Shown: positions 24,181-53,878 of the stretch, piece after piece
Layout: every line of letters starts with the position of its first letter
How positions within the stretch are numbered: position 1 is the first letter of the stretch
DNA from: Actinomycetota bacterium
GTDB taxonomy: Bacteria; Actinomycetota; UBA4738; HRBIN12
Direction of reading: 5' to 3'
Assembly: GCA_036555645.1 (NCBI GenBank)
Contig: DATBLA010000185.1
Location: 17,694-81,693 of the forward strand
DNA length: 64,000 nt
Notes under the pieces: model-generated
Told to the model about the DNA's origin: nothing
Seen by the model: the letters and a program-made list of their open reading frames with translations, nothing else
Database searches by the model: none
Translations under genes and position numbers: made by a program

Positions 24181-24188
24181 CATTCAAG

Positions 24189-24600: not shown

Positions 24601-24843
24601 TTGGACACCGCAACGAGCATCACGGAGTACGTCCGCGATGAGCTGCTCGTCGGCGACGGCGAGCTGAACGCCGATACCCCGCTGTGGGACGGCGCCATCG
24701 ACTCGGTCGCCCTCATCCAGCTCATCTCGTTCATCGAGGAGCGATTCGGCGTCGAGATCGATGATGCCGAGCTGACCTCGGACCACTTCAACACGGTCGC
24801 CGACATCGCCGCCCTCGTCGATCGCAAGCTCGCCTCGGCATGA
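24601..24843 (+). CDS. Acyl/peptidyl carrier protein (DltC-like)
   Basis: 80 aa. LWDGAIDSVALIQLISFIEERFGVEI with phosphopantetheine-attachment Ser in DS context. Confidence 0.8.
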   Translation: MDTATSITEYVRDELLVGDGELNADTPLWDGAIDSVALIQLISFIEERFGVEIDDAELTSDHFNTVADIAALVDRKLASA

Positions 24844-24880
24844 GGAGCCCGCTCGACGACGGCGACCGGAGGAGGCTCGG

Positions 24881-26470: not shown

Positions 26471-26472
26471 AG

Positions 26473-28694: not shown

Positions 28695-28713
28695 CGGCTC
28701 GGAGGACGAAGGG

Positions 28714-30021: not shown

Positions 30022-30299
30022 GCGCTGCCCGGACCTACGAGCGCCGTCCCGTGCTCTGGCGTCGCTGCGGCGACGAGATCCTCGTGGCGGTCCCCGAGCG
30101 GGACGGAGTCGGACGCCTGTCCGAGCCGGCCTCGCTCGTCTGGCACCTGCTGGATCGACCGTCCTCGGCGGAGGCGCTGACCGCGGAGGTGGCGTCTCGG
30201 TTCGACGATTCGGGACGGGACGTCGCGGACCGGGTCGAGGCCATGCTCGCCGAGCTCGTTGCGGAAGGATGGATCCGACCGGTGGCATCGGATGGGTGA
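30018..30299 (+). CDS. Third PqqD-family protein (GTGA overlap with dehydrogenase)
   Basis: ILVAVPERDGVGRLSEPASLVWHLLDRPSSAEALTAEVASRFDDSGRDVADRVEAMLAELVAEGWI. Confidence 0.65.
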   Translation: MSAARTYERRPVLWRRCGDEILVAVPERDGVGRLSEPASLVWHLLDRPSSAEALTAEVASRFDDSGRDVADRVEAMLAELVAEGWIRPVASDG

Positions 30300-32237: not shown

Positions 32238-32238
32238 C

Positions 32239-35263: not shown

Positions 35264-35264
35264 C

Positions 35265-36452: not shown

Positions 36453-36453
36453 G

Positions 36454-37569: not shown

Positions 37570-37579
37570 GGAGGCCGGC

Positions 37580-38737: not shown

Positions 38738-39768
38738 GCGGCGAGGCATCGGTCGAGACCGAGGTGGTGATCCGGCCCTACCGGGACGACGACGCATCCG
38801 AGGTGCTCGACCTGCTCGTCGGATCGCTGGGCGGTGGTCCCGCGGGGGAGCGGCCGCCCGAGTACTTCCAGTGGAAGCACCTCGACAACCCCTTCGGGCG
38901 CTCGTACATGATCGTGGCCGAGTTCGCGGGCAGGATCATCGGCTTTCGGGCGCTCATGCGGTGGCAGTTCGGCATCGGCGATCGCACCGTGGAGGCCGTC
39001 CGTCCCGTCGACACCGTGACGCACCCCGATCACCGGGGTCGGGGGGTCTTCTCCCGCCTCACGCGGGCCGCCCTCGAATCGCTGCAGGGTGAGATCGACC
39101 TCGTGTTCAACACGCCGAACCAGAACAGCCTCCCCGGGTATCTGAAGCTGGGCTGGGAGGTGGTCGGGCAGGTCCCGGTCAGCGTCCGCGTGTGCCGGCC
39201 GGCGTCGTTCGTCCTGGGCAAGCTCCGTAGGTCCGGGTCGGCGAGCCCGCCGGAGCGCCCGGCGATCTCCGCCCCGAGGGCGTCGGAGGTGCTCGAGGGG
39301 GACACCGAGGTCGCCGGTCTCCTCGAACGCGTCGAGCGCGTTCCCGGCGCGTACGCGACCCCTCGGACCGTGCCGTTCCTCCGGTGGCGCTTCGGCGACG
39401 CCCCGCTCCTGGGGTATCACGCGGTCGTCGAGCGGGACGGAGACGGGCTGCGCGGCCTCGCGTTCTTCCGGCTTCGCGCGGAGGGGTCGCTGTGGGGGCT
39501 GTCCGTCGCGGACGTGCTCGTCCGCGACGGCGACGTGAGCGTCGCGCGCTCGCTGCTCGCCGCCGCGCGGCGATCCGCCAACGTCGCGTACGTGGCGGCA
39601 GCGTTTCCCCCTGGCTCGTCGGCGGCCGCGGCTCATCGGGGACCGACCACGATGCGCGCGCCCCGGGGGATGACCTTCGTCGTGAACCCCGTCCGCCCCG
39701 ATCTGCGGCCGGACCCGCGTGTGCTGTCGTCCTGGGCGCTGTCCACCGGGGACGTCGAGGTGTTCTGA
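38734..39768 (+). CDS. Large GNAT-type acyltransferase (FemAB/BioF2-like size class, about 344 aa)
   Basis: HPDHRGRGVFSRLTRAAL acetyl-CoA-binding motif. Long C-terminal domain. Confidence 0.55.
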   Translation: MSGEASVETEVVIRPYRDDDASEVLDLLVGSLGGGPAGERPPEYFQWKHLDNPFGRSYMIVAEFAGRIIGFRALMRWQFGIGDRTVEAVRPVDTVTHPDHRGRGVFSRLTRAALESLQGEIDLVFNTPNQNSLPGYLKLGWEVVGQVPVSVRVCRPASFVLGKLRRSGSASPPERPAISAPRASEVLEGDTEVAGLLERVERVPGAYATPRTVPFLRWRFGDAPLLGYHAVVERDGDGLRGLAFFRLRAEGSLWGLSVADVLVRDGDVSVARSLLAAARRSANVAYVAAAFPPGSSAAAAHRGPTTMRAPRGMTFVVNPVRPDLRPDPRVLSSWALSTGDVEVF

Positions 39769-41154
39769 GTGAGCATGCTCGATGTCGCCGTTCGCAACCG
39801 GTCGAGGTGGGCGCTCCTCGGCGTGGGGCTCGTCGTCGTGGCGATGTACATCGCCATCCTGCTGTACCTCATGGAGCGGAGCACGTGGGACACGTGGGGC
39901 GCGATGGTCATCGGTCCCGTCCTGTATCTGATCAGCATCCCCGCCTTCGTCCGGCAGGCGAAACGAGAGAACGACCGGCGCGTCGTGTGGCTGCTGGTCA
40001 CCGCGCTCACGGTGAAGTTCGTCTTCTCGCTGCTCCGGTATCACCAGGCGTTCAACCTCGTGAACAAGGCCGACGCCCAGGCCTACGACGCCACCGGAAC
40101 CGAGATCGCGCTCCGGTTCCTGTCCGGGGACTACTCGACGGGCCTCGAGGGGTGGCTGGACTCCAATTTCATCCGGCTGTTCACCGGTCTGATCTACACC
40201 GTGATCCGTCCGACGGCGGCCGGGGCGTTCCTCATCTACGCGTGGCTGGCGTTCTGGGGGACGTACTTCTTCTACCGGGCGTTCGTGCTCGCGGTGCCCG
40301 ACGGGAACCGGCGGAGCTACGGGCGCTGGCTGTTCTTCCTGCCGTCGATCCTGTTCTGGCCCTCGAGCATCGGCAAGGAGTCCTGGCTCATCTTCGGGCT
40401 GGGGATCGCGGCGTTCGGGGCGGCGAAGGTGCTGTCCGAGCGGGTCATGCCCGGGCTGCTCGTGGCCGCGCTCGGCATCGGCCTGACGGCGCTCGTCCGG
40501 ACCCCGTCGGCGGTCGCGATGGGGATCGGGCTCGTCGTCGGGGGCTTCCTGCGACGGCCCAAACGCGAGCTTCGCCATCTCGGGCCGATCGCCAAGCTCG
40601 CCACGACCGGATTGTTCGTCGGTCTCGCCCTGGTGATGTTCCTCGTGCTCCAGGAATACCTCGCCCGCGAAGGACTCGGAGGACAGGACATCGACAGCCT
40701 GCTTGCGGAGTCCCAGCGTCTGACGGCCACCGGGGGCTCCGAGTTCACGCCGACGTCGATCACCTCGCCCATCGGCCTCATGATCGCGGCCGTGACGGTG
40801 CTGTTCCGCCCCTTCCTGTTCGAGGCGAACAACGCGGAGGCCGTCGTCACCGCGCTCGAGGCGTCGGTGCTCATGGTGTTCACGCTCGTCCGATGGCGAT
40901 CGATCTGGGCGGCCATCAGAGGCGTGCGTCGCATCCCGTACGCGGCCGTGGCCATCACGTACGTCGGAGCGGCGATCGTCGCGCTCTCCGCCGTGGCGAA
41001 CTTCGGGATCATCGCTCGGCAGCGAACGCTCATCTTCCCGATGTTCCTCGTGCTCCTGTGCGTGGCGCCCGCTCGTCGCGCGCGGTCGGAGGCGGACCAT
41101 CGCGCCGAGGTGCCCGCCGCCGGCACCAGGGCGCTCGTCGGAGCCCGGCGGTGA
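39769..41154 (+). CDS. Polytopic membrane protein, putative oligosaccharide repeat-unit polymerase (Wzy-like)
   Basis: About 10 hydrophobic segments. No recognisable catalytic motif. Position next to O-antigen-ligase-like gene. Confidence 0.45.
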   Translation: MSMLDVAVRNRSRWALLGVGLVVVAMYIAILLYLMERSTWDTWGAMVIGPVLYLISIPAFVRQAKRENDRRVVWLLVTALTVKFVFSLLRYHQAFNLVNKADAQAYDATGTEIALRFLSGDYSTGLEGWLDSNFIRLFTGLIYTVIRPTAAGAFLIYAWLAFWGTYFFYRAFVLAVPDGNRRSYGRWLFFLPSILFWPSSIGKESWLIFGLGIAAFGAAKVLSERVMPGLLVAALGIGLTALVRTPSAVAMGIGLVVGGFLRRPKRELRHLGPIAKLATTGLFVGLALVMFLVLQEYLAREGLGGQDIDSLLAESQRLTATGGSEFTPTSITSPIGLMIAAVTVLFRPFLFEANNAEAVVTALEASVLMVFTLVRWRSIWAAIRGVRRIPYAAVAITYVGAAIVALSAVANFGIIARQRTLIFPMFLVLLCVAPARRARSEADHRAEVPAAGTRALVGARR

Positions 41155-42212
41155 ACGCGTCGAGCCTCCACGAGTCCTCGGGTCGGTCGCTCGCGCTCGT
41201 CGGCGCGGCGCTCTTCGCAGGTGCGGCCGCATGGTCCGCGGTGACCGCGCTGATCGCCGGGACCGCTCCCGCGCCGGCGGCCGGGATGATCCTCGGATGC
41301 GGCGTCACCGTGGGCCTGTGTTGGCTGGCGGGCAGTCGCTGGCCCCTGCTCGTTCCCGCGGGGCTCGTCGCCGCGGCGGTCCTGCTCGTGGCGATGAACG
41401 TGGAGACCACGCTCCGGTCGCACCCGCTCCAGGGCCCGTTCGGCTACGCGAACGCGACGGCGGCGTTCCTCGTCCAGGCGATCATCGCCGCGGTCATGCT
41501 GATCGTGAGCGCCCGTCCCGGGGCCGTGCGGATCCTCGCCGCGACGGCCACGATCGGGTTCGCAGGCGTCCTCGTCGTGACGCGGTCGTGGACGGCGATC
41601 CTGTCCCTGCCGGTGGTCCTGCTCCTCGCCCTGATCGTCGAACGCGAGCGCGGCGGGCGCGCCGCGGTGATGGTCGCCGCGGGCCTGTTCGTGGCCGCCC
41701 TCGCCGTCACGGTCGCGCTCGGTGCCATCAGATTGGGAACCGGGACCGGTCCCCTCGACCGGTTGGTGCAGGGCACGATCTCGGAGGGGCGCCCGCAGCT
41801 GTGGCACGAGGCCCTGTCGATCACGGCGGCTCGGCCGCTCGTGGGCGTGGGTCCGGGCGCGTTCGCCGTGACGAGTCCGACCGCCGCGTCGGATCTGGAC
41901 CTGCGATGGGCGCACAACGAGTACCTGCAGGCCGGTGCCGAGTCGGGGGTCCTCGGCTATCTCCTGGCCACCGGCATCTTCCTGTGGGGGTTCGCGGCGC
42001 TGTGGATGGGGTCGCCGGGACGGATCGGCGCCCTCGGCGCGGCGGCGTTGGCGCTGCTCGGCATCCACGCGTCGGTGGACTACGTGCTGCATTTCCCCGC
42101 CGTGGCGGTCGCCGGGGCCGCGTTGCTCGGTGCGAGCGTGGGTGCCTCGCGGCTGTCCGCGGACCTCGTTGCGCCTCGCGCCGATCCCGTGCCGACGGGA
42201 GGGCTCGCATGA
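41151..42212 (+). CDS. O-antigen ligase/polymerase family membrane protein (Wzy_C domain)
   Basis: RWAHNEYLQAGAESGVLGYLL conserved motif. GTGA overlap. Confidence 0.7.
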   Translation: MNASSLHESSGRSLALVGAALFAGAAAWSAVTALIAGTAPAPAAGMILGCGVTVGLCWLAGSRWPLLVPAGLVAAAVLLVAMNVETTLRSHPLQGPFGYANATAAFLVQAIIAAVMLIVSARPGAVRILAATATIGFAGVLVVTRSWTAILSLPVVLLLALIVERERGGRAAVMVAAGLFVAALAVTVALGAIRLGTGTGPLDRLVQGTISEGRPQLWHEALSITAARPLVGVGPGAFAVTSPTAASDLDLRWAHNEYLQAGAESGVLGYLLATGIFLWGFAALWMGSPGRIGALGAAALALLGIHASVDYVLHFPAVAVAGAALLGASVGASRLSADLVAPRADPVPTGGLA

Positions 42213-43189
42213 GCGCGGCCGGATCGAGAGGACCGAGCCAGCTCCTCGGTGTGCTGGTGACCTACGACCGACCGGCGGCCCTGGCGATCACCCTGGGGCG
42301 GCTGGCCGAACAGGATCGCCGCCTCGATCTCCTCGTGGTCGTCGACAACGCGCCGACCGATGCGTCGAGGCGGGCCGTCGCCGGCAACCCCGACGTGGCC
42401 GAGCGCGTCGAGCACCTCGAGATGGCCGAGAACCTGGGGTTCACCGGTGGCGTGGCCGCGGGGATGCGCCACGTGATCGCGACGGCCGACGATCGGGACT
42501 GGATCGTGGTGCTGGACGACGACGACCCGGTGCCCTACCCGGAGGTGCTCTCCGAGCTCGAGCGATTCGCGAACCGCATGCTCGACGAGGATCCCACGAC
42601 GGCGGGGATCGGCATGAGCGGAGGGCGATTCGATTGGCGGCGCGGGCGGATTCGCCGGGTGGCCGACGAGGAGCTGCACGGGCCGGTGGCCGTCGACCAC
42701 GTCGCCGGCAACTCGGTGCCGTTCTATCTCGTGTCGGCCGTGCGGCGGAACGGAACGTTCCATGCGCCGCTGTTCTTCGGGCTATCGGAGATCGAGTTCG
42801 GACTCCGACTCTCGCGCGCGGGCCACGCCTTCTACGGTCATGGCGACCTGTGGCGGCGACGCAGACGTGAGGCCGGGCGCATGGGGCTCGACGCGCGTCC
42901 GAGCCGCCGGCTGGCGCCGATGAACTGGCGGCGCTACTACGTGCTCCGCAACTCGATCTACATGCTGCGACGGTTCGGACACCAGGGAACCGCCCTGCGG
43001 CTGACGATGATCAACCTGGGCAAGCCGATCGCCAACCTCCCGTTCGAACCGGGTCTGGCGAGCAGGCACCTCGCCTCGAACGTGCGCGCGTGCCGTGACG
43101 GCTGGATGGGGCGGATGGGCCGGCGTGTCGAGCCCGGGTCGGATGCCCGTCACGAACGAAAGGCCGGAGCCTCGACGGCGCCGGCCTGA
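42209..43189 (+). CDS. Glycosyltransferase family 2
   Basis: LGVLVTYDRPAAL...VVVDNAPTD...VVLDDDD (DXD). Confidence 0.7.
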   Translation: MSAAGSRGPSQLLGVLVTYDRPAALAITLGRLAEQDRRLDLLVVVDNAPTDASRRAVAGNPDVAERVEHLEMAENLGFTGGVAAGMRHVIATADDRDWIVVLDDDDPVPYPEVLSELERFANRMLDEDPTTAGIGMSGGRFDWRRGRIRRVADEELHGPVAVDHVAGNSVPFYLVSAVRRNGTFHAPLFFGLSEIEFGLRLSRAGHAFYGHGDLWRRRRREAGRMGLDARPSRRLAPMNWRRYYVLRNSIYMLRRFGHQGTALRLTMINLGKPIANLPFEPGLASRHLASNVRACRDGWMGRMGRRVEPGSDARHERKAGASTAPA

Positions 43190-43219
43190 ACACCGATCAC
43201 CACCGAGGAGGACCACGCG

Positions 43220-44125
43220 ATGATCCAGACCGACGTCTCGGCATCTCCCGCCGCGACCCGAGTGATGGCCGACGGCTCGCCGGAGCGCGTCGAGTTCCTC
43301 GGCGCCGAGGGAGAACGTCTCCTGTCGTATCTGCACCTGCCGGCCTCGAGCCCGCGCGGCGCCGTCGTGATCTGTCCCGCGCTGCACGGCGAGTTCATGC
43401 GCAACTACCGTCGCGAGGTCCTGCTCGCCCGCAAGCTGGCCCACATCGGCTTCGCGGTGGATCGCGTCCAGTACCGCTTCTCGGGCAACAGCGACGGTGA
43501 GGACTCGGACCTGTCCTTCGACTCGATGCGCGAGGATGCGCTGTTCTCCGTGGAGCGCGTGCGGGAGCTGGCCCCGGGCGTTCCCGTGTTCCTGGCCGGC
43601 ACCCGATGGGGCGCGATGATCGCCGCCGCCGCCGCACGCAACCATCCCGACGCCGGGGTGGTGCTGTGGGAGCCGGTGCTCACGGGATCGCAGTTCTTCA
43701 AGGACGCCTTCCGGAACAAGGCCTTTCGCGATCTTCGCGACGGGATCGAGCAGCCGGCCACGAGCGACGAGCTCGAGGAGCGACTGCGGGGCGGCGAACC
43801 CGTGGACGTCGTGGCCCATCGCATCGAGGTGGAGCTGTACCGGTCCTGCATCGACCGGTCGCTGGACACGGAGATGGGAGACTCGCACCGGAACGTCCTG
43901 CTCACGCAGATCGGTCCCTCGGCGCTGCGAAAGCCGTTCGCCCGCCAGGTCGAGCGGTGGCAGGCGGCGGGGATCGAGGTCGACGTGGAGATCGTGCGTG
44001 GCGAGGAGAACTGGTGGCTCATCCAGGAACGTTGGAGCGACGAGGGGACCCATCCGCTCACGCGAGCGCTCGTCGCGCTGAGCGCGACGTGGCTGTCGGC
44101 CCACGCGGGCGAGGTCGCGTCGTGA
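43220..44125 (+). CDS. Alpha/beta-fold hydrolase, paralog type 1, copy 1
   Basis: VVICPALHGEFMRNYRREVLLARKLAHIGFAVDRVQYRFSGNSDGE...LAGTRWGAMIAAAAA. Nucleophile position appears to be W/R-G rather than GxSxG. Confidence 0.55.
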   Translation: MIQTDVSASPAATRVMADGSPERVEFLGAEGERLLSYLHLPASSPRGAVVICPALHGEFMRNYRREVLLARKLAHIGFAVDRVQYRFSGNSDGEDSDLSFDSMREDALFSVERVRELAPGVPVFLAGTRWGAMIAAAAARNHPDAGVVLWEPVLTGSQFFKDAFRNKAFRDLRDGIEQPATSDELEERLRGGEPVDVVAHRIEVELYRSCIDRSLDTEMGDSHRNVLLTQIGPSALRKPFARQVERWQAAGIEVDVEIVRGEENWWLIQERWSDEGTHPLTRALVALSATWLSAHAGEVAS

Positions 44126-45108
44126 CCGGGGCGGCCGTGACGTATCGGGAGGCACCCGTCTTCCTCGAGTCGGGGGAGGACTCGCTGTTCGCGATCGTCA
44201 CCGTCCCGGCGCGAGGACGGGCGACGGCCGGGTTGATCGTGCTTCCCGGCGGCGCGACACCGCTCACGACGAACCGCAACCGTCTGTCGGTGAGGATCTG
44301 CCGCGCGCTGGCTCGCGAGGGCTACGCGGCGATGCGGCTGGACTACCACGGCACGGGCGACAGCACCGGGGTCCTCGATCAGATCCGCCTGGACCAGCCG
44401 GTCGTCGAGGACGTCGCGGCCGGCGTCGCCTACCTGCGGTCGATCGGCGTGGAACGCGTGGCGCTCGCCGGGTCGTGCTACGGGGCTCGCAACGCCCTGG
44501 AGACGGCGGCGGCGTTGCCGGAGGTGTCGGAGGTCATCATGATCGCGCCGTCGACGCTGGACTACGTCCTCGGCGAGCGCGGGGGAGTCAACCGCGCGAA
44601 GAAGTGGTCGCTTGGCCGCTACGCGATCGAAGCGCTCCGCCCACGGACGATCGCGGGCGTGTTCAGCAGCCGCAAGCGCCGAAGCTACGGGATCTACGCG
44701 CGCGCGAAGATGAAGGAGATGCGTCGGAAGCTTCCCGGCCGGCAGGCGGACGCGACCGGGTCGGAGGCGGAGATGGATGCGAGCCCGGGATTCGAGCGGG
44801 CGATGAGGACGCTCGCCGACCGCGGCGCGCCGGTCCTGTTCGTCTACGGGGGGGAAGACGGGTTCTACGGGGAGTTCACGAGGGCCGCCGACGGACGACT
44901 CGGGGAGATCCTGGGAGGATCGACGGTCTCCGTCCGCGTGCTCCCGGGGAAGATCCACGGGTTCACCACGGTTCATGCGCAGGACGTCGCGCTGGAGGAG
45001 ATCCGCGGGTGGGCGGCCCGAACTCGCACGGATGGCTCGACCGAACCGATCGGCGAACCCGAGGCGGTCCCCGCGCTCGATCTCCCGGATCGGGCGGCCG
45101 AGGGCTGA
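44122..45108 (+). CDS. Alpha/beta-fold hydrolase, paralog type 2, copy 1
   Basis: GLIVLPGGATPLTTNRNRLSVRICRALAREGYAAMRLDYHGTGDSTG...LAGSCYGARNAL: nucleophile elbow carries Cys (GSCYG). Confidence 0.55.
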   Translation: MTGAAVTYREAPVFLESGEDSLFAIVTVPARGRATAGLIVLPGGATPLTTNRNRLSVRICRALAREGYAAMRLDYHGTGDSTGVLDQIRLDQPVVEDVAAGVAYLRSIGVERVALAGSCYGARNALETAAALPEVSEVIMIAPSTLDYVLGERGGVNRAKKWSLGRYAIEALRPRTIAGVFSSRKRRSYGIYARAKMKEMRRKLPGRQADATGSEAEMDASPGFERAMRTLADRGAPVLFVYGGEDGFYGEFTRAADGRLGEILGGSTVSVRVLPGKIHGFTTVHAQDVALEEIRGWAARTRTDGSTEPIGEPEAVPALDLPDRAAEG

Positions 45109-45151
45109 TCTGCGTGACCGACGATCCGCTCACATCGACCAGAGGAGACAG

Positions 45152-46063
45152 ATGACGATCGGCGAACAGCAACAGGCGGCCGTCGCCACACGCGTCGACG
45201 AGGCGACCGGGACCGCCGAACGGGTGGAGTTCCGCGGAGCCGGCCGCGAACGGGTGTTCTCGGTGCAGTACACGCCCGCCACCGAGCCGGTCGGCGGCCT
45301 GCTCGTCTGCCCCGCGCTGGCCAGCGAGTTCACGCAGAATTACCGACGCGAGGTGCTGCTCGCTCGCCGTCTGGCCGAGATGGGCTTCGTGGTCGAGCGG
45401 TTCCACTACCGGTTCACCGGCAACAGCGACGGCGACTCCGCGAACCTCACCTTCGACTCGATGCGAGAGGATGCGGTCGCGGCGACCGAGCACCTGCGGG
45501 GGCTGGCCCCCGGGCTGCCGCTGTTCCTCCTCGGCACCCGATGGGGATCCCTGGTCGCCGCGTCGGCCGCCGCGTCGTCCGATGCGGGCCTCGTGCTCTG
45601 GGAGCCCGAGCTCGACACCGCCCGGTTCTTCAAGGATGCGTTCCGCGCCCGCCTCGTCTACGACCGCAAGCGGGGGGTGGAGGAGCCGCTCACCGGCGCT
45701 CAGCTGATCGAACGGGTCCGGGCCGGGGACCCCGTCGAGGCGATGGGGCACACGATCGAGCCCGAGCTGTTCCACTCGTCCGAGGGCCGCACGCTCGAGG
45801 GCGAGCTCGGGTCGACGCCTCGCGCGATCTTCGTCCTCCAGCTCGGTGGGACGGGTGTCGTCGGGCAGGCGCTCTCGTCGCAGATCGACCGCTGGAGCGA
45901 GGCCGGGTTCCGGGTCGATGTGGAGACGGTCAAGGGAGACGAGACGTGGTGGGTGATCGACGAGCGTCTGAACGACATGGGTGACCAGCCGATGACCAAG
46001 CGACTCATCGAGCTCACGTCCGCGTGGCTGGCCACCAGCGTGGGACGGCAGGTCGAGGCATGA
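45152..46063 (+). CDS. Alpha/beta-fold hydrolase, paralog type 1, copy 2
   Basis: LLVCPALASEFTQNYRREVLLARRLAEMGFVVERFHYRFTGNSDGD...LLGTRWGSLVAASAA. Confidence 0.55.
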   Translation: MTIGEQQQAAVATRVDEATGTAERVEFRGAGRERVFSVQYTPATEPVGGLLVCPALASEFTQNYRREVLLARRLAEMGFVVERFHYRFTGNSDGDSANLTFDSMREDAVAATEHLRGLAPGLPLFLLGTRWGSLVAASAAASSDAGLVLWEPELDTARFFKDAFRARLVYDRKRGVEEPLTGAQLIERVRAGDPVEAMGHTIEPELFHSSEGRTLEGELGSTPRAIFVLQLGGTGVVGQALSSQIDRWSEAGFRVDVETVKGDETWWVIDERLNDMGDQPMTKRLIELTSAWLATSVGRQVEA

Positions 46064-47019
46064 GCGCGGACCCGCGACCCGACTACGTGGAGCGGCCGAT
46101 GTACTTCGACGTGGACGGTGAGGCGGTGTTCGGCATCCTCACGCGGTCACTCGACGAGCACGTGGACACGGCCGTGATCGTGCTTCCGGGCGGCGGCGTG
46201 CCGCTCACGACCAACCGCAACCGGCTGACGGTCCGGATCTGTCGCGACCTGGCCGGCCTCGGCGTCGCGGCGTTCCGGATGGATTACCACGGGACCGGCG
46301 AGAGCACCGGCTCCGTCGGGGGATTCCACACGGGGCACCCGTTCTGGGGGGACGTCCGCGCGGCCATCTCGCGGCTGAAGGAGGAGGGGCTCACGCGATT
46401 CGTGCTCGTGGGCTCGTGTTTCGGGTCGCGCACGGCGCTGTCTGCGGCCGCCCATCTGGACGACGTGGAGGAGGTCCTGCTGTTCTCCGTCCCGCTGGGC
46501 GACTACGCGATGGGGGAGCGCAAGAGCGTCACGACCGCGCAGCGCCACCACCTCGGCCACTACGCGAGGGCAGCCCTCAGGCCCCGGACGTGGCGGGCGC
46601 TGCTCAGCCGCCGCGGCCGGTGGGTGCTCTGGAACCACGCGCGGGCCAAGCTGCGCGTCATCTGGACGCGGTTGTCGCGTCTGGCCGGGCGCGCGCCTTC
46701 GTCCGAGCCCCACGCCGAGCACATCAGTCCTCGATTCCGTCGCGGGCTCGAGCGGCTGATCGAGCGAGGCGTCCCCGTGACCTTCGTCTTCGGTGATGAC
46801 GAGGACTATCACCGGGAGTTCGAGGAGGCTCGCCGGCACGAGCTGGGCGAGATCCTGGCGCGGGGGGGCTCCAAGGTTCGGATCGTGACGCTGCCGGGGC
46901 GGATCCACGGGTTCACGACCCTGGCATCGCAGGACGCGTCGCTCGGCGTGATCACCGAGTGGGCGCGGGGCCGGCGGGCAGGGTTCGTGCCGGGGACGCC
47001 GACGGACGTCGCGTCCTAG
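46060..47019 (+). CDS. Alpha/beta-fold hydrolase, paralog type 2, copy 2
   Basis: VIVLPGGGVPLTTNRNRLTVRICRDLAGLGVAAFRMDYHGTGESTG...LVGSCFGSRTAL. Confidence 0.55.
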   Translation: MSADPRPDYVERPMYFDVDGEAVFGILTRSLDEHVDTAVIVLPGGGVPLTTNRNRLTVRICRDLAGLGVAAFRMDYHGTGESTGSVGGFHTGHPFWGDVRAAISRLKEEGLTRFVLVGSCFGSRTALSAAAHLDDVEEVLLFSVPLGDYAMGERKSVTTAQRHHLGHYARAALRPRTWRALLSRRGRWVLWNHARAKLRVIWTRLSRLAGRAPSSEPHAEHISPRFRRGLERLIERGVPVTFVFGDDEDYHREFEEARRHELGEILARGGSKVRIVTLPGRIHGFTTLASQDASLGVITEWARGRRAGFVPGTPTDVAS

Positions 47020-47073
47020 CCGGGGCGCGCCGCCGCCTCGCGGACTCCGGTCCACGGAACCACGATCTCCGTG

Positions 47074-48042
47074 TCATCCGGCGAACGCCGCTCGACGATG
47101 TTCGGGAGGGAGGGGACCTTGGCGATCTCCATCGATCCGGCGACGCGACCCGTCGCGACGGCCACCTTCCCCGACGGGCTCGTCGAACGAGCGGAGTACC
47201 TGGGGCCTCCGGGGGCACGCGTGCTCACGCTCCAGCACGTGCCGACGGCGCAGCCGAGGGCCGCGGTCGTGATCTGCTCGCCGATCCACGGTGAGTTCGC
47301 TCGGAACTATCGGCGCGAGGTGCTCTTCGCGCGGCGGCTCGCTCGAGACGGCATCGCCGTCGAGCGGTTCCACTACCGGTGCACGGGCAACAGCGATGGA
47401 GACGGCGAGCACCTCACCTTCGACTCAATGGTCGAGGACTCCCTGTCGTGCGTGGAGCACCTCCTGCGAGAGGCGGGTGAGGTTCCGCTCGTCATCGTCG
47501 GCGCGCGCTGGGGCTCGATCGTCGCGGCCTCGACGGCCGCCCGAAGTGGCGCCGCCGTCGCCGTCGTCCTGTGGGAGCCGTTGCTCGATGCGTCCCGATT
47601 CTTCAAGGATGCGTTCCGGAACAAGCTGGTGAAGGAGAAGCGTGCCGGGGCGATCGACATCGAGACGAGCGCGGATCTGGAGCGGCGTCTCCTCGCCGGC
47701 GAGTCCGTCGACGTCGTCGCGCATCGGATCGAGGTCGAGCTGTACCGCACATCGGCGGGGCGAACGCTGGGCGATGAGCTCGGGACGGATCCGCGGGATC
47801 TGCTCGTCGTGCAGCTGGGCACGACCGGGACGCTTCGACGGGAGATCGTCCAACAGGTCGAACACTGGCAGACCGCTGGGCTGCGGGTCGACACGGCGGT
47901 CGTTCGCGGAGAAGAGGCCTGGTGGCTCGTGGACGAGACGCTGTACGACGAGGGCTCGAGACCGGTGACGCAGGAGCTCGTCACGGTCAGCACCGATTGG
48001 ATCGGCCGGCGGGCGCTCCCTCCGGGAGGATCGTCTCGATGA
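47074..48042 (+). CDS. Alpha/beta-fold hydrolase, paralog type 1, copy 3 (start 47074 or ATG 47098)
   Basis: VVICSPIHGEFARNYRREVLFARRLARDGIAVERFHYRCTGNSDGD...IVGARWGSIVAASTA. Confidence 0.55.
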   Translation, partial: SSGERRSTMFGREGTLAISIDPATRPVATATFPDGLVERAEYLGPPGARVLTLQHVPTAQPRAAVVICSPIHGEFARNYRREVLFARRLARDGIAVERFHYRCTGNSDGDGEHLTFDSMVEDSLSCVEHLLREAGEVPLVIVGARWGSIVAASTAARSGAAVAVVLWEPLLDASRFFKDAFRNKLVKEKRAGAIDIETSADLERRLLAGESVDVVAHRIEVELYRTSAGRTLGDELGTDPRDLLVVQLGTTGTLRREIVQQVEHWQTAGLRVDTAVVRGEEAWWLVDETLYDEGSRPVTQELVTVSTDWIGRRALPPGGSSR

Positions 48043-48986
48043 TCGCACGGGGCTACCTCGAGATGCCGGTGTTCTTCGAATCGGCCGGCGAGACCCTGTT
48101 CGGGATCGTGACGGTACCGGCGGATGGCCAGGCGCGAACCGGCCTCGTCATCCTTCCGGGCGGTGGGACGCCGTTCTCGGTGAACCGGAACCGCGTCTCG
48201 GTCCGCGTGTGCCGCGAGCTCGCGGCGCTCGGTGTGGCCGCCTTCCGGCCCGATTTCCACGGGGCGGGCGACAGCACCGGCCCAAGCGAGAAGCTCGCCC
48301 TCGATCGGCCCTATTCGGCCGATGTCCAGGCCGCCGCGCAGACGCTCCGGCAGCTCGGCGCGGAACGGATCGTCCTCGCGGGCTCGTGCTTCGGCGGGCG
48401 AAGCGCCCTGTCCGCCGCGCCGCTCGAGGACGACGTGCACGCGGTGATCCTCATCGCCACCTCGCTGCACGACTACGAGATGGGCGAGCGCAAGAGCGCT
48501 CGTGCCGCCGCGAACTGGTCCATGGGACGCTACGTCCGCGAGTCGGTGCAGCCTCGGAGGATCCGTGGGCTGTTCACGGCCCGCTCCCGCCGGTCATACG
48601 CGAAATACGTCCGGGCCAAGCTCGGGACGTTCGCCGCATGGAACCGGATGACCGGTCGGGAGGCCGGGGAGGGGGAGCGGAACACGGAAGTCGTGTCTCC
48701 GCTGTTCGCCACACCGCTTCGGCGTCTCCTGGACCGGGGCGGTCGCGTCCTGTTCATCTTCGGGAAGGACGACACGTCGTACGAGGAGTATCTGGAGGCG
48801 GCCGCCGGACCGCTCGCGGACGTCCTCGGCGGGGATCATCCCGGCGTCGAGGTGACCGTCGTACCGGGCAAGATCCACGGGTTCCTCTCGATTGCGGCTC
48901 AGGATCTCGTCGTGGACGAGATCGCGCGGTGGATGGCGGCCGATCGCTCGGCCCCGGCGCTCGCACGACCTCGGGTGGAGGAGTAG
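48039..48986 (+). CDS. Alpha/beta-fold hydrolase, paralog type 2, copy 3
   Basis: LVILPGGGTPFSVNRNRVSVRVCRELAALGVAAFRPDFHGAGDSTG...LAGSCFGGRSAL. Confidence 0.55.
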   Translation: MIARGYLEMPVFFESAGETLFGIVTVPADGQARTGLVILPGGGTPFSVNRNRVSVRVCRELAALGVAAFRPDFHGAGDSTGPSEKLALDRPYSADVQAAAQTLRQLGAERIVLAGSCFGGRSALSAAPLEDDVHAVILIATSLHDYEMGERKSARAAANWSMGRYVRESVQPRRIRGLFTARSRRSYAKYVRAKLGTFAAWNRMTGREAGEGERNTEVVSPLFATPLRRLLDRGGRVLFIFGKDDTSYEEYLEAAAGPLADVLGGDHPGVEVTVVPGKIHGFLSIAAQDLVVDEIARWMAADRSAPALARPRVEE

Positions 48987-48989
48987 ACC

Positions 48990-49787
48990 GTGCCATCTGC
49001 CGAGACCCTCGTGCGGGTGGGCGTGAAGATGGTGGCCCTGCCGCTCGGCGCCGCCTCGCGCAGGCAGGCCGGCGACGTGGTGATCCTGTGCTACCACCGC
49101 GTCGCCGACAGTCCGAGAGAGATCGACGTGCCGCCGGCGCGGTTCGCCGACCAGCTCGACGCCGTGTCGTCGGGCGGCCGGGTGCGATCCCTCGACGACG
49201 CGCTGTCGGGTTCGGAGGGCGGCGTGGTGCTCACGTTCGACGACGGGTTCCGCGACTTCCACGACGTCGTCCTCCCTGCCCTCGTCGAGCGGGGCATGCC
49301 CGCGCTGCTGTACCTGGCGACGGGATTCGTCGACGTCGGCGACCCCAGGACCGGCATCGGGCCGGACGGTGCGCTCTCCTGGACGATGCTGGAGGAGGCC
49401 ACGTCGACGGGGCTCGTCACGGTGGCATCGCACACGCACGATCACGTCGACCTGTCGAAGGCCGGCGATGCCGAGGCGGAGGAGCAGATGCGGCGCTCGA
49501 AGGAGCTCATCGAGGATCGCCTGGGGCGTTCGTGCACGCACTTCGCCTACCCCTGGGGACGGGCCTCGGCGGCCTCGGACGCGGTGGCCAGGCGGACGTT
49601 CCGCTCCGCGGCGCTCGACTCGTGGCGCACGAACCGGCGCGATCGTCTCGACGCCCATCGGCTCGGACGAACGCCGGTGTTCCGCAGCGACAGCGACGTG
49701 TTCATCCGAGCCAAGGCCCGGGGTCAGCTCGATGCCGAGGGCTATGCCTATCGCCTGCTGCGCAAGGGTCCATGGGCGCCGTCGTGA
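48990..49787 (+). CDS. Polysaccharide deacetylase family protein
   Basis: VVLTFDDGFRDF...ASHTHDHVDL NodB motifs. Confidence 0.75.
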   Translation: MPSAETLVRVGVKMVALPLGAASRRQAGDVVILCYHRVADSPREIDVPPARFADQLDAVSSGGRVRSLDDALSGSEGGVVLTFDDGFRDFHDVVLPALVERGMPALLYLATGFVDVGDPRTGIGPDGALSWTMLEEATSTGLVTVASHTHDHVDLSKAGDAEAEEQMRRSKELIEDRLGRSCTHFAYPWGRASAASDAVARRTFRSAALDSWRTNRRDRLDAHRLGRTPVFRSDSDVFIRAKARGQLDAEGYAYRLLRKGPWAPS

Positions 49788-51637
49788 CCCGGCCGAGCTC
49801 CCCGGCGGGACCCGCGGGGCGCGATCCCGCCCGGGCGCCGGTGCGTGTGGCCCACGTCACCACCGTGGACGCGACGCTGTGGATGTTGCTGCTCGGCCAG
49901 CTGCGGGGTCTGCGCGACGAGGGGTTCGAGGTCACGACGATCAGCGCCCCCGGGTCCCAGGTGCCGCGTCTGCGGGCGGAGGGGTTCGAGCATGTCGCGT
50001 GGCGGAACGCCACCCGCGCGTGGGACCCGGCGGCCGACGCGCGCGCGTTCGTCGAGCTGGTGCGGATCTTCCGACGCAATCGGTTCGACGTCGTTCACAC
50101 GCACAACCCGAAGCCCGGGATCCTCGGCAGGGTGGCCGCTCGCCTGGCGGGCGTGCCGATCGTCGTGAACACCGTGCACGGCTACTGGGCCGCCCCGGAG
50201 GATCCCCCGCGGCGGCGGCTCCCGGTGATGTCGGCGGAGTGGCTCGCCGCCAGGTTCAGCGACGCCGAGCTGTTCCAGAGCGCCGAGGATCTCGCGTGGG
50301 CGCGCCGGCTTCGGCTCGTGGCTCCGCCCCGGGCGCGCCTTCTCGGGAGCGGGACGGATCTGTCGAGGTTCGACCCGGCCAGCCTCGATCCCGGTCGGCT
50401 CGCGGCGCTCCGGGCCGAGCTCGGACTGCCCGAGGGCGGCCTCGTCGTCGGGATGATCGGTCGGATGGTGCGCGAGAAGGGCTTCGTCGAGTTCTTCGAG
50501 GCCGCGCGCGCCATCCGAGCACGGCGGCGGGACGTCTCGTTCCTCGTGGTCGGTCCGACCGACCGGCACAAGGACGACGCCATCTCGGAGCACGATCGTG
50601 CCGCGTCGGGCGAGGACGTCGTGTTCGCCGGCTGGCGCTGGGACATCCCCGAGATGCTCGGCCTCATGGACGTCTTCGTGTTGCCCTCCTGGAGAGAGGG
50701 CCTGCCTCGTTCGCCGATCGAAGCGGCAGCGATGGGCAAGGCGATGGTGCTCTCGGACATCCGAGGGTGTCGCGAGGTGGCGCGGGACGAGCGCGAGGCG
50801 CTGCTCGTTCCGCCCCGGGATGCGGTCGCCCTCACGCGGGCGATCGAGCGGCTCCTGGAGGACGACGCGCTCCGCGCGAGCCTCGGAGCGGCGGCCCGAG
50901 ACCGGGCGCTCGACCGGTTCGACGAGCGAGCCGTGGCGCGACGGGTCGTCGAGACGTATCGGGACCTGCTGCCGCGGCCGGCCGTCGCGCCGAGGCAGGT
51001 CGATCAGCCCGGGCTTCGCGAGGTGGCGATCCGCGAGGCGACCCGGGCCGACGCGCCGGTCATCGCGTCGATGCATCGTTCGGTGATGAATCCCAAGGCG
51101 TTCCTGCCGAGCCTCGGCCCCACGTTCATGCGCCTGCTCTTCCTCGCCCTGATCGAGGACCCGGCGGCGCCGGTGCACGTGGCGATCCGGGAAGGCGAGA
51201 TCGTCGGGTACACGGCCGGGGTCGTCTCCATGTCGGGGTTTCGACGCAGGTTCGTCCGGCGGTACGGCGTTCGCGCCGGGATGTCGGTGGCGCCCGCCCT
51301 CCTGCGGCCGGGTGTGGTGCGCCGGGCCGTCGAGATCTTCCGATACCCGGAGGCGACCCGGGATCTGCCGCAGGCCGAGCACGCGTTCCTGGGGGTCCGG
51401 CAGCAGGGCAAGGGTCTCGGGCCCATCCTCACGAAGACGACGCTCGAGTCGCTCGAGGACCTCGGGGTGGCCGAGGTGAAGGGCTACGTCCAGGCGACGA
51501 ACGTCCCCATGAACAAGATGATGCTGCGCGTGGGGTGGGAGCCCCGCGGGGAGATCACGATCCACGACGGCGTGCCGAGCGTCCTTTACGTCTACCGATG
51601 CCATTCCTCATCGCCCTCGGAATCGGACTCGCGCTGA
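49772..51637 (+). CDS. Glycosyltransferase family 4 fused to C-terminal GNAT acetyltransferase domain (alternative start GTG 49784)
   Basis: N-terminal GT4 (HTHNPKPGILG...VFVLPSWREGLPRSPIEAAAMGKAMV) then about 200 aa GNAT-like region (HAFLGVRQQGKGLGPIL). Embedded in artefactual 1142-aa track ORF. Confidence 0.65.
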   Translation: MGAVVTRPSSPAGPAGRDPARAPVRVAHVTTVDATLWMLLLGQLRGLRDEGFEVTTISAPGSQVPRLRAEGFEHVAWRNATRAWDPAADARAFVELVRIFRRNRFDVVHTHNPKPGILGRVAARLAGVPIVVNTVHGYWAAPEDPPRRRLPVMSAEWLAARFSDAELFQSAEDLAWARRLRLVAPPRARLLGSGTDLSRFDPASLDPGRLAALRAELGLPEGGLVVGMIGRMVREKGFVEFFEAARAIRARRRDVSFLVVGPTDRHKDDAISEHDRAASGEDVVFAGWRWDIPEMLGLMDVFVLPSWREGLPRSPIEAAAMGKAMVLSDIRGCREVARDEREALLVPPRDAVALTRAIERLLEDDALRASLGAAARDRALDRFDERAVARRVVETYRDLLPRPAVAPRQVDQPGLREVAIREATRADAPVIASMHRSVMNPKAFLPSLGPTFMRLLFLALIEDPAAPVHVAIREGEIVGYTAGVVSMSGFRRRFVRRYGVRAGMSVAPALLRPGVVRRAVEIFRYPEATRDLPQAEHAFLGVRQQGKGLGPILTKTTLESLEDLGVAEVKGYVQATNVPMNKMMLRVGWEPRGEITIHDGVPSVLYVYRCHSSSPSESDSR

Positions 51638-52563
51638 CCCCCCTGCTGGCCCGCGTCGGGCGGGCGGCGGGGCTGGTCGATCACCCCTCGGGGAGCGCTC
51701 TCAAGATCCACGCCGAGCCGCGGCCGCTCACCGGTGGGATCGCGATCGTGTTCGCGACCCTGATCGCGCAGGCGATCGGGCGGGGCGAGGTCGAGTCGTG
51801 GACGGCCGGGATCGTCGTCCTGCTCGTCCTGGGAGTGGTCGACGACCTCGTGTCGCTTCCCGCGGTCGTCCGGTTGCTGGGCGAGGTGGCGGCCGGCGTC
51901 GCCCTCGCCCTCGCCGGACTGACGCTGTCGCCGCTGGGAGACGCCGGACCGGTCGTCCTCGCGCTGGCCGTGCTCGCGCTGGCGAACGCCGTGAACTTCG
52001 TGGACGGGCAGGACGGCCTGGCCGGCGGCCTCGCGACGGCGTCGGCGCTCGGCGTCACGGCGATTCTCGCCTCGCAGGGGTCCGTCGGCGACCTGGGGCC
52101 CGCACTCGTCGCCTCCCTGCTGGCGTTCCTCGTGTGGAACCGACCTCCGGCGAGCGTGTTCCTCGGCGACGGCGGCGCGTACGCGGTGGCCGGTCTGCTC
52201 GTCGTCCTCGCCTCCTCCGCCGCGACGTCGTGGGAGGCGCTGCTTGGTGTGCTCGTGTGCATGACGCCGTTCGTCGTCGAGCTCGTGAGCACGATCGTGC
52301 GCCGGCTCGTCACCCGATCGGCCATGACGTCCGGCGATCGCTCGCACCTGTACGACCTCCTCGCGATCCGCCTGGGCGGACGCGAGCGTTCCACCGGCGT
52401 CATCGTGGGGGTCGGGATCTGTGTGTCCGCCCTCGGTCTGCTCGTTGCCGAGATCCCGCTCCTCGGGGGCGTCGCGATCACGCTCGCGATCGCGATCGCG
52501 AGCGCCGTCGGCGTCCGCGTGCTCTGGACGACGACATCGAAGCCGGTACGGCGTTCGCAGTAG
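51598..52563 (+). CDS. Glycosyltransferase family 4 polyprenol-phosphate sugar-1-phosphate transferase (WecA/MraY-like)
   Basis: Multi-TM. NAVNFVDGQDGLAGG and VFLGDGGAYAVAG motifs. 40-bp overlap with preceding gene. Confidence 0.75.
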   Translation: MPFLIALGIGLALTPLLARVGRAAGLVDHPSGSALKIHAEPRPLTGGIAIVFATLIAQAIGRGEVESWTAGIVVLLVLGVVDDLVSLPAVVRLLGEVAAGVALALAGLTLSPLGDAGPVVLALAVLALANAVNFVDGQDGLAGGLATASALGVTAILASQGSVGDLGPALVASLLAFLVWNRPPASVFLGDGGAYAVAGLLVVLASSAATSWEALLGVLVCMTPFVVELVSTIVRRLVTRSAMTSGDRSHLYDLLAIRLGGRERSTGVIVGVGICVSALGLLVAEIPLLGGVAITLAIAIASAVGVRVLWTTTSKPVRRSQ

Positions 52564-52672
52564 CGGACGTACGCCGGCCAAGCCTTGGTCGCGAGTGTGG
52601 TGACTCGTACCTTCGAAGGAAAGGAGTGCCCGTTCATGCGGCTCGAACGATCAACCGAAGAGGTGTCCATCC

Positions 52673-53878
52673 ATGCGGGTTGAAGAGGCTCGGGACCGAC
52701 GTCCGGCGGCCCTCGGGGGGGCTCCGATGTTCCCCGACGGCCTGCCGCTGGCACGCCCGCGGATCGCCGATCCCGGCCGGCTCGCTCGCGAGCTCGAGCG
52801 CATCGTCTCGAGCGAGGTGCTGACGAACGGGCCCACCGTGGAGCGCCTGGAAGCCCGGGCCGCCGACTATCTCGGGGTGCGTCACTGCATCGCCGTCGCC
52901 TCGTGCACGACGGGGCTGATGCTCGTCCTTCGCGCCGCGGAGGTGTCGGGCGACGTGATCGTGCCGTCGTTCACGTTCGCCGCGACCGCGCACGCCGTCG
53001 CGTGGAGCGGGCTGCGTCCGGTGTTCGCGGACGTCGATCCGGAGACGCTCACGCTGTCCCCGCTGTCCGCCGAACGCGCGATCGGCGTTCGCACGTCCGC
53101 GATCCTCGCGACGCACATCTTCGGGGCGCCGTGTGATGTCGAGGGTCTGGCGGGTGTCGCCAGGCGCAACGGCATCTCGCTGTTCTTCGACGCGGCGCAC
53201 GGCTTCGGGGCCAAGCGCGCGGGGACGATGGTCGGCGGATCAGGGGCGGCGGAGGTCTTCAGCCTCACGCCGACGAAGACGCTGATCGCGGGCGAGGGCG
53301 GCATCATCGCGACGAACGACGATCTCCTGGCGGAGCGCTGCCGGATCGGCCGGAACTACGGGAACCCGGGTGACTACGACTGCCGGTTCGTCGGCCTGAA
53401 TGGCAGGATGTCCGAGCTTCACGCCGCGGTGGCGCTGGCATCCTTCGACGACCTCGAAGAGCGGATCGCCCGCCGCAACGAGCTCGCGGCCCGGTACCGC
53501 GAGGTGCTGGCGACCGTCCCCGGCGTCGAGTTCCCGCTCGTCCGCGATGACGACCGGTCCACGTACAAGGATCTGTCGATCCTGGTCGACGACCGCGCGT
53601 TCGGGTTGACGGCCGACGGCCTGGCCGAGGCGCTGGAGGCCGAGGGCATCGAGACCCGGAGGTACTACGCGCCGCCGGTGCACCGGATGCGCTCCTATCG
53701 AGCGGTGGCCGCGGGCGTCGACCTGCCGGTGACCGACGCCGCCGCGGCCGAGTCCCTGTCGATCCCGCTGTGGACCGACATGACCGAGGACCAGGTGGCG
53801 CAGGTCGGCGAGGCCATCCGCACGATCGGCGAGCAGTTGGGCCGTGTCGGCGCGGTCACCGCCTCACCCGACGACTGA
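52673..53878 (+). CDS. DegT/DnrJ/EryC1/StrS-family sugar aminotransferase
   Basis: FSLTPTKTLIAGEGG PLP-lysine region and overall 401-aa architecture. Confidence 0.85.
   Translation: MRVEEARDRRPAALGGAPMFPDGLPLARPRIADPGRLARELERIVSSEVLTNGPTVERLEARAADYLGVRHCIAVASCTTGLMLVLRAAEVSGDVIVPSFTFAATAHAVAWSGLRPVFADVDPETLTLSPLSAERAIGVRTSAILATHIFGAPCDVEGLAGVARRNGISLFFDAAHGFGAKRAGTMVGGSGAAEVFSLTPTKTLIAGEGGIIATNDDLLAERCRIGRNYGNPGDYDCRFVGLNGRMSELHAAVALASFDDLEERIARRNELAARYREVLATVPGVEFPLVRDDDRSTYKDLSILVDDRAFGLTADGLAEALEAEGIETRRYYAPPVHRMRSYRAVAAGVDLPVTDAAAAESLSIPLWTDMTEDQVAQVGEAIRTIGEQLGRVGAVTASPDD

Follow-up and report, generated by a model that had tools for sequence, protein, structure and literature searches.

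A tandem array of two alternating gene families

The DNA analysed here, a 64-kb stretch of contig DATBLA010000185.1 from an uncultured actinobacterium (hereafter the window), carries at positions 43220-48986 six co-directional genes on the plus strand, which belong to two families, termed A and B, and follow one another in the alternating order A-B-A-B-A-B (Table 1). An earlier note, made from the sequence alone, had described six genes alternating between two families, with a stop/start overlap at each junction within a pair, and the gene coordinates bear this out: all three A-to-B junctions are 4-nt overlaps (GTGA at A1/B1, ATGA at A2/B2 and A3/B3), and the B-to-A gaps measure 43 nt (B1-A2) and 51-99 nt (B2-A3). 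The gene starts are our own calls. For A3, the most likely start is the TTG codon at 47119, which is directly preceded by the purine-rich GGGAGGGAGGGG; the product read from this codon equals, save for the start residue, a protein (P0053) annotated as 'MAG TPA: alpha/beta hydrolase [Actinomycetota bacterium]'. A second possible start is the GTG at 47071. The in-frame third-position GC content of the six genes is 0.85-0.89, similar to that of the other genes of the window (71% GC).

Pairwise protein identity is 48-51% among the A copies and 43-48% among the B copies, and the DNA of the copies is 66-78% identical, over partial stretches only. Such low DNA identity rules out both an assembly artefact and a recent duplication, and the copies are not the recent identical duplicates that the earlier note had named as a refuting case. 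Judging by their divergence, the three pairs are old paralogs that stem from an ancient multiplication. All family-invariant residues are kept in all six genes, and therefore all six look functional. In neighbour-joining trees, the A and B copies of the syntenic cluster fall into one clade. A scan for promoters and terminators across 42-50 kb found nothing beyond shuffled expectation.

A and B are remote relatives of the exosortase-associated hydrolases

Searches with the NCBIfam hidden Markov models (HMMs) returned TIGR03101 (hydrolase 2, exosortase A system-associated) as the top match for A1, A2 and A3 (94.0, 91.1 and 78.5 bits, covering model positions ~1-250 of 266), and TIGR03100 (hydrolase 1, exosortase A system-associated) as the top match for B1, B2 and B3 (57.7, 71.0 and 70.6 bits, model positions 2-272 of 274). 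Against curated cut-offs of 202.75 bits for TIGR03101 and 168.45 bits for TIGR03100, however, all copies score well under half of what membership demands; for comparison, a true TIGR03100 member (P0013) scores 240.5 bits. A and B are therefore distant relatives and not members of these families, and on the strength of these profiles they are related to the exosortase A hydrolases only as remote homologs. The kinship proposed in the earlier note thus stands as regards the top, full-length matches but not as regards membership, and its numbering of the two types has to be inverted, its type 1 being hydrolase-2-like and its type 2 hydrolase-1-like. A TIGR03101 sequence above the cut-off was not obtained, a plasmid tblastn yielding sub-threshold relatives only.

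The two families are weakly similar to each other by BLASTP (28-34% identity over ~100-150 N-terminal residues), and profile-profile alignment established that they are homologous over their full length (hhalign probability 98.8%). Both belong to the alpha/beta-hydrolase fold superfamily and Pfam clan, with matches in Pfam to generic families only (Hydrolase_4, DLH and Abhydrolase_6), and AlphaFold models of A1 and B1 (predicted local distance difference test scores, pLDDT, of 89 and 71) show an alpha/beta-hydrolase fold with a cap. Comparing core and cap identity among the paralogs, we found that divergence is not concentrated in the cap. A sequence search of the PDB found no solved relative nearer than generic Hydrolase_4 esterases. 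Neither A nor B contains a hydrophobic segment, and no signal peptide or membrane anchor was found in either. The A family is large, comprising 882 representative clusters at E<=1e-30, to which Actinomycetota contribute many; the strong genome matches were all to metagenome-assembled genomes (MAGs; 12 of 12, at least 10 carrying an Actinomycetota lineage label), with none from a cultured organism.

B keeps a Cys-His-Asp triad and A has replaced the nucleophile by Arg

When aligned to solved esterases, the Cys of the B motif GSC[YF]G and the Arg of the A motif G[TA]RWG both fall on the catalytic Ser, such that the motifs pointed out in the earlier note (GSCYG/GSCFG and RWG) are real and lie precisely at the nucleophile elbow. 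Taking B-type sequences of every context together (n=42), the elbow Cys is present in every case, the His of the GK/R-I-H-G-F motif in 38 and the Asp in 35. In A-type sequences (n=202), Arg occupies the nucleophile position in 199, and a further set of residues is near-invariant, namely C52, E58, Y63-R64-(R65)-E66, G-N-S-D-G, W150-E-P152 and W265-W266. The profile-profile alignment pairs R129 of A with C119 of B, and A has neither a His nor an acid in the columns of the B His and Asp. A has an Arg where the nucleophile should be, lacks both acid and His and keeps its motifs conserved, and is therefore under selection but incapable of triad chemistry. By these residue patterns, A is a strongly conserved pseudo-enzyme and B is a Cys-His-Asp enzyme.

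The same division is seen in the exosortase-associated proteins. The bona fide hydrolase 1 P0013 carries GLCDG and GADHTF, and the hydrolase 1 of the Sphingomonas parapaucimobilis XrtA locus has the elbow GNCDA; the gene that precedes the latter, annotated as a hypothetical protein, encodes SIRGG, and the Arg is found in 121 of 121 sequences (this protein and 120 relatives). For canonical hydrolase 2, the presence of Arg is based on this Sphingomonas-type partner and on sub-threshold relatives only. Thus, as far as these residues tell, the elbow Cys and the Arg are traits of ancestral origin in the two families, and are not confined to the locus.

A and B occur together and are repeatedly fused

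Among the loci that show both genes, A is directly followed by B in the window, L001-L014, L020-L022 and L024, and the reverse order, B-A, was found only in L023. All pairs of the window, L001 and L003 show the 4-nt A/B overlap. Moreover, the two families occur as a single chain, in the order A-B in P0080, P0105, P0148, P0179, P0192, L013 (5743-7605) and a 596-aa Azospirillum protein (L019, 9164-10954), and in the order B-A in P0102 and P0108. In the L013 fusion the elbow of the A domain reads GIGFG, with Gly replacing Arg. Independent fusions in both orders are a classic sign of a physical A:B complex, and we infer from these arrangements that A and B would form a heteromer. Chance is excluded by the HMM E-values, which range from 1e-15 to 1e-26, and by the occurrence of the A-then-B pair in more than 15 independent loci.

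The array lies in a surface-polysaccharide cluster

The six genes form part of a co-directional cluster of surface-polysaccharide genes (Table 1). In order, this cluster encodes a CapD-like dehydratase, a LuxR protein, a Wzz/P-loop protein, an acyl carrier protein (ACP), an adenylation enzyme and a BD-FAE esterase; a sulfotransferase, an NDP-sugar dehydrogenase, an NTP_transf_5 protein, a Wzm/Wzt ABC exporter, a second sulfotransferase, a NodB-type deacetylase and three GT4 glycosyltransferases; a GNAT, a protein with nine transmembrane (TM) segments, Wzy_C, GT2 and the three A/B pairs; and finally another NodB-type deacetylase, a GT4-GNAT fusion, a WecA-like GT4 and a DegT aminotransferase.

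Table 1. Genes of the A/B array and associated features of the window
Feature	Position	Strand	Description
A1	43220..44125	+	Hydrolase-2-like predicted pseudo-hydrolase, 301 aa; Arg129 at nucleophile elbow (GTRWG)
B1	44122..45108	+	Hydrolase-1-like alpha/beta hydrolase, 328 aa; predicted triad Cys119-Asp246-His279 (GSCYG ... GKIHGF); GTG start; TIGR03100 E 1.1e-15
A2	45152..46063	+	Hydrolase-2-like predicted pseudo-hydrolase, 303 aa; GTRWG; TIGR03101 E 8.4e-26; 50% identity to A1
B2	46060..47019	+	Hydrolase-1-like predicted Cys enzyme, 319 aa; GSCFG and GRIHGF; TIGR03100 E 9.6e-20
A3	47119..48042	+	Hydrolase-2-like predicted pseudo-hydrolase, 307 aa from TTG 47119; GARWG; TIGR03101 E 5.7e-22
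B3	48039..48986	+	Hydrolase-1-like predicted Cys enzyme, 315 aa; GSCFG and GKIHGF; TIGR03100 E 1.3e-19
Surface-polysaccharide cluster	20112..53878	+	Co-directional, ~34 kb; contains carrier protein, ligase, A/B pairs and deacetylases
Stand-alone carrier protein (ACP)	24601..24843	+	80 aa; phosphopantetheine-site Ser in DSVAL; matches NCBIfam ACP models including DltC and AsbD types
Stand-alone amino-acid adenylation enzyme, DltA-like	24881..26470	+	529 aa; TIGR01733 397.8 bits
NodB-type polysaccharide deacetylase	48990..49787	+	Directly after B3; matches PgaB, HfsH and NodB models
Second NodB-type polysaccharide deacetylase	34436..35263	+	Model match
GNAT	38734-39768		No NCBIfam family at E<=0.001; Pfam GNAT families only, best Acetyltransf_9
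Holo-ACP synthase (AcpS-type phosphopantetheinyl transferase, PPTase)	5173..5547	+	Housekeeping; Pfam ACPS E 4.8e-18; sole PPTase of the window

The ACP encoded at 24601 is presumed to be the acyl donor carrier, and the AcpS-type PPTase could, we infer, prime it. The adenylation enzyme passes the TIGR01733 cut-off (317.4 bits), scores 303 bits with DltA, and keeps in its A4 motif, FDLSVFD, the Asp that binds the alpha-amino group. Its second-best match, at 341.6 bits, is TIGR03098 (ligase_PEP_1), under the cut-off of 592. Hence, of the cassette partners listed in the earlier note, the ACP and an AMP-ligase are indeed in the cluster, but 18 kb from the pairs; NodB deacetylase is present as two genes, and the supposed FemAB-like GNAT at 38734 matched neither FemAB nor TIGR03019 in NCBIfam and Pfam. 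In line with the note, no exosortase is visible: the scanned cluster genes of the window gave no exosortase or archaeosortase match, and its polytopic membrane proteins are the CapD-like, Wzz-like, Wzm, Wzy_C and WecA-like proteins and the 9-TM protein without a match, with no others. A pyridoxal phosphate (PLP) decarboxylase was likewise not found among the scanned cluster genes.

Pair number varies, and carrier-protein genes recur near the pairs

Comparing relatives that share the same set of glycosyltransferases, we found one A/B pair in L005, two in L001 (which equals L004, a 3.45 Mb MAG chromosome), two in L007 and three in L003. Where the pairs end, a gene for a NodB-type deacetylase comes next, both in the window and in its four nearest syntenic relatives among those fetched (L001, L003, L005 and L007). 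With one to three pairs on a constant gene backbone, the pairs therefore behave as accessory decoration modules.

Beyond these relatives, the pair was found in a range of carrier-protein contexts. In a Euzebyaceae MAG (L012), the genes for an ACP, an adenylation enzyme, A and B are translationally coupled; the order is A-B-ACP in L006 and ACP-A-B in L009, and downstream of A-B in L010 and L011 there is, within ~2 kb, first an adenylation gene and next an ACP gene. In L020, A-B precedes an acyl-CoA-dehydrogenase-like (ACAD) gene and an AMP-binding gene, and in L022 a FAD-halogenase-like gene. In Variovorax paradoxus (L017, CP063167.1, 1898-20312), two large nonribosomal peptide synthetase (NRPS) genes and a PPTase gene stand immediately ahead of an Arg/Cys A-B pair, after which come Wza/Wzc-type exopolysaccharide (EPS) export genes. 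This order suggests that a cultured proteobacterium makes a polysaccharide or glycolipid decorated with peptide; this species would be a tractable model for the A/B pair. Azospirillum oryzae carries genes for an ACP, an ACAD-like protein, an amino acid:[ACP] ligase, DUF1839, GH2 and an A-B fusion, and the Sphingomonas XrtA locus comprises xrtA, a FemAB-family gene, a deacetylase, a PLP decarboxylase, an AMP-binding gene, an ACP, the Arg protein and hydrolase 1. This last locus is the cassette that the earlier note had described, which thus exists. Carrier proteins and adenylating enzymes recur across most of the unrelated A/B contexts, and polysaccharide genes and exosortase do not; accordingly, the pair is not tied to exosortases and moves with the carrier-protein and adenylation machinery.

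Two of the syntenic relatives present local irregularities. In L007 (3391-4624), three overlapping reading frames make up the B gene of the first pair, which is either a decaying copy or the result of assembly frameshifts. In L003, an insertion at 11850-15178, between the second and third pairs, carries a 552-aa beta-helix-like protein on the minus strand and a 519-aa protein.

A proposed two-subunit transferase

Alpha/beta-hydrolase-fold enzymes are known to move (amino)acyl groups off carrier proteins, as do CouN7, CmaE, SyrC and LgnA; the recipient of CouN7 is a free-standing substrate, and CmaE, SyrC and LgnA transfer between carrier proteins (PMC8748450). Given these precedents, we propose that each A:B heteromer moves an ACP-borne (amino)acyl group to a hydroxyl or amine of a sugar, a reading that we hold tentatively, at a little short of an even chance, and in which donor, acceptor and transfer rather than hydrolysis are all conjectural. 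Each A/B gene pair would encode one two-subunit enzyme, with B as the catalytic subunit and A as its dead paralog. The DltA-like adenylation enzyme would charge the 80-aa carrier protein with an amino acid (or another acid), the B Cys would receive the group by transthioesterification, and A:B would hand it to a hydroxyl or amine of the nascent polysaccharide. As neither protein has a hydrophobic segment, this would take place in the cytoplasm, prior to export. The dead subunit probably binds B plus either the acceptor glycan or the carrier protein; its strictly conserved pocket (Y-R-R-E, GNSDG, G-x-R-x-G, W-E-P and W-W) abounds in Arg and Trp and would lend itself to binding the phosphopantetheine arm, a (pyro)phosphate or an anionic sugar. 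Acceptor amines may be freed by the adjacent NodB deacetylases, which is purely our conjecture. The three diverged pairs may decorate different positions or handle different donors, and the variable pair number on one glycosyltransferase set suits such an accessory decoration. The earlier suggestion that these proteins are acyltransferases or thioesterases rather than plain hydrolases fits both the Cys nucleophile and the carrier-protein contexts.

Several observations weigh against this proposal. A distance of 18 kb separates the pairs from the ACP and adenylation genes upstream, the window encodes one ACP against three pairs, and in several short contigs A/B genes stand beside sulfotransferases with no ACP in view. 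The Cys-His-Asp triad equally fits hydrolysis, as in dienelactone hydrolase or a thioesterase, and fold searches placed generic feruloyl esterases and monoacylglycerol lipases closest, offering no functional lead; the confidence of the B1 model is also moderate. In addition, the neighbour-joining trees of A and B resolve neither orthology between genomes nor a strict co-duplication of the two. Lastly, the literature searched contained no functional study of TIGR03100, TIGR03101 or the XrtA cassette of ACP, ligase and hydrolases, and the 2006 PEP-CTERM paper does not mention the hydrolase 1/2 cassette genes; nor did this literature contain a paper proposing that the cassette acylates the polymer, as the earlier note had it.

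The intact triad in B, the recurrence of thiotemplate genes near the pairs and the presence of the thioesterases DcsB and LuxD among the structural neighbours would all be compatible with B hydrolysing (amino)acyl-S-carrier protein, either for editing of the type II kind or for product release, with A in a regulatory or docking role and nothing reaching the polysaccharide. We consider this unlikely, since editing hardly explains three diverged copies for one ACP, the pairs lie within the glycosyltransferase/deacetylase block and not beside the ACP, and the copy number varies on a constant backbone; moreover, we know of no type II thioesterase with a conserved dead partner that has a Trp-Trp motif and an Arg-rich pocket. 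The distance of the ACP in the window, and its absence from view in some A/B contigs, could instead mean that the pairs are MetX-like O- or N-acyltransferases that draw acetyl, succinyl or similar groups from acyl-CoA, independently of the carrier protein of the cluster. The MetX (homoserine O-acetyltransferase) matches that favour this are, however, marginal and confined to B3 (E 4e-5), the contigs without an ACP are mostly short, and a carrier-bound donor is favoured by the tight ACP-adenylation-A-B operon of L012 as well as by the NRPS/PPTase-A-B and ACP/amino acid:[ACP] ligase contexts, making this explanation quite unlikely.

Finally, the pairs might be true hydrolases that act on the polymer or its precursors, either as esterases trimming acyl or other ester groups or in quality control of assembly. 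The esterase-type Pfam families and the nearest solved folds agree with such a role, and a Burkholderia paper guessed as much for a TIGR03100-type gene (PMC3584217). Yet A lacks catalytic residues, both proteins are devoid of a signal peptide or membrane anchor, so that the exported polymer would be out of their reach, and such a role does not account for the systematic association with carrier-protein and adenylation genes; we regard this as the most improbable of the three.

Comparison with known systems

The nearest known counterpart is the XrtA TIGR03101/TIGR03100 pair, which shares with the pairs described here the top HMM matches, the gene order (the hydrolase-2 position first, hydrolase 1 second, overlapping), the Cys in hydrolase 1 and Arg in its partner, and the association with an ACP, an adenylating enzyme and a deacetylase-containing EPS locus. 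It differs in that our pairs come from an uncultured actinobacterium whose 64 kb examined here contain no exosortase, the window has neither a PLP decarboxylase (TIGR03099) nor a FemAB-family gene among the scanned cluster genes, the pairs are multiplied to three and stand 18 kb from the ACP and ligase, and the ligase is an amino-acid adenylation domain (TIGR01733) instead of TIGR03098. The XrtA pair is itself functionally uncharacterised, and the Sphingomonas partner bears the annotation of a hypothetical protein rather than that of hydrolase 2.

With CouN7/CloN7, CmaE, SyrC and LgnA the pairs share, as a functional analogy only, the proposed route of a carrier-tethered group to an active-site nucleophile and onward, and CmaE and SyrC reportedly employ an active-site Cys; unlike A/B, these enzymes act alone, without an obligate dead paralog, in secondary-metabolite clusters. 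The L020 and Azospirillum contexts, with an adenylating enzyme and an ACAD-like gene (and in Azospirillum also an ACP), resemble the CloN3/N4/N5/N7 set. Dlt D-alanylation likewise combines a stand-alone adenylation enzyme (DltA) with a small carrier protein (DltC models) in an envelope-polymer pathway; here, however, there is no DltB (MBOAT) or DltD, and transfer would be cytoplasmic, by the A/B pairs. As in dienelactone hydrolase (Pfam DLH, PF01738), the elbow of B holds a Cys, and B1, B2 and B3 (29.5, 22.3 and 26.8) pass the DLH gathering score of 21, but the matches cover the N-terminal half only, an aromatic-catabolism context is missing, and dienelactone hydrolase has no dead partner subunit.

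A further parallel is offered by Nod-factor synthesis, in which deacetylation by NodB is followed by N-acylation by NodA from the carrier protein NodF. In the window, a NodB-type deacetylase directly follows the last pair and an ACP is present in the cluster; on the other hand, there is no NodA homolog, and the substrate would be a polymer and not a chito-oligosaccharide. By analogy, a deacetylate-then-reacylate sequence is plausible.

Implications

Since the TIGRFAMs models were built, hydrolase 1 and hydrolase 2 have been a named yet functionally blank part of exosortase-type EPS loci. New to us are the conserved Arg-bearing pseudo-enzyme as hydrolase-2 partner, the fusions, the independence from exosortases and the variable tandem copy number. 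The residue pattern and the context provide a testable hypothesis for both families, namely carrier-protein-dependent (amino)acylation of polysaccharide by a heteromer. A wider claim, which we consider rather doubtful, is that A(Arg)/B(Cys) pairs constitute an unrecognised, widespread class of heteromeric glycan (amino)acyl transferases, in which the dead subunit would present the acceptor or carrier protein and the Cys subunit would perform the transfer. Were this wider claim true, it would provide a function for TIGR03100 and TIGR03101 in XrtA exopolysaccharide loci and a cytoplasmic counterpart of Dlt-type polymer aminoacylation, and the tandem multiplication of pairs would serve to diversify the decoration of surface polysaccharides. 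That one to three pairs occur on a constant backbone hints at an easy way for uncultured actinobacteria of soil and sediment to vary their surface glycans.

Other features of the window

The polysaccharide cluster, together with two-component and LuxR regulators (15000-55500), is flanked by a housekeeping block (1-14650: rplM, rpsI, glmM, glmS, acpS, nnr, alr, ..., tsaB, rimI, tsaD) and by groES/groEL (55986-57994), and has the appearance of a large insertion island between tsaD and groES. Despite this island-like placement, its GC content (~0.70-0.72) is the same as that of its flanks.

Two cytoplasmic sulfotransferases are encoded in the cluster (27636-28694 and 33504-34346), and sulfotransferase genes often adjoin A/B pairs in other Actinomycetota contigs (L008, L010, L011, L013, L023 and L024). 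Their presence in both settings predicts that the exported polysaccharide is probably sulfated. Sulfated polysaccharides are described in one report as unusual in bacteria beyond cyanobacteria (PMC8205485).

The 9-TM protein (39769-41154), 461 aa long and with ~9 hydrophobic segments, has no Pfam or NCBIfam match. L001, L003 and L005 keep it between the GNAT and Wzy_C genes, and it may be a novel flippase or polymerase, but is not detectably an exosortase. The gene at 49772-51637 encodes a 621-aa fusion of a GT4 with a C-terminal domain of ~200 aa that gives only a faint GNAT signal (Acetyltransf_1, E 0.005). This fusion is also full length in L003, and in L001 and L005 it corresponds to two or three separate open reading frames.

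The end of the adenylation gene, stop included, shares 16 nt with the gene for the BD-FAE/hormone-sensitive-lipase-type esterase (26455-27639), whose product may be a further acyl-handling enzyme of the carrier-protein sub-pathway. Just upstream of the cluster, at 18490-18774, lies a gene for a small PqqD-like protein. L020 and L021 also carry a PqqD-like gene (4021-4341 in L020), which is the nearest gene upstream of the A/B pair, at a distance of 182 nt; PqqD-type domains are usually peptide binders in pathways for ribosomally made, post-translationally modified peptides (RiPPs). The NTP_transf_5 gene ('uncharacterised nucleotidyltransferase', 30292-31461) is situated between those for the NDP-sugar dehydrogenase and the Wzm/Wzt exporter, an arrangement kept in L009. 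Downstream of groEL, at 58241-63856, there is a second small sugar-modification set, which encodes an epimerase, a C-methyltransferase with a zinc-binding N-terminus, a nucleotidyl transferase and a DUF4910/M28-like protein.

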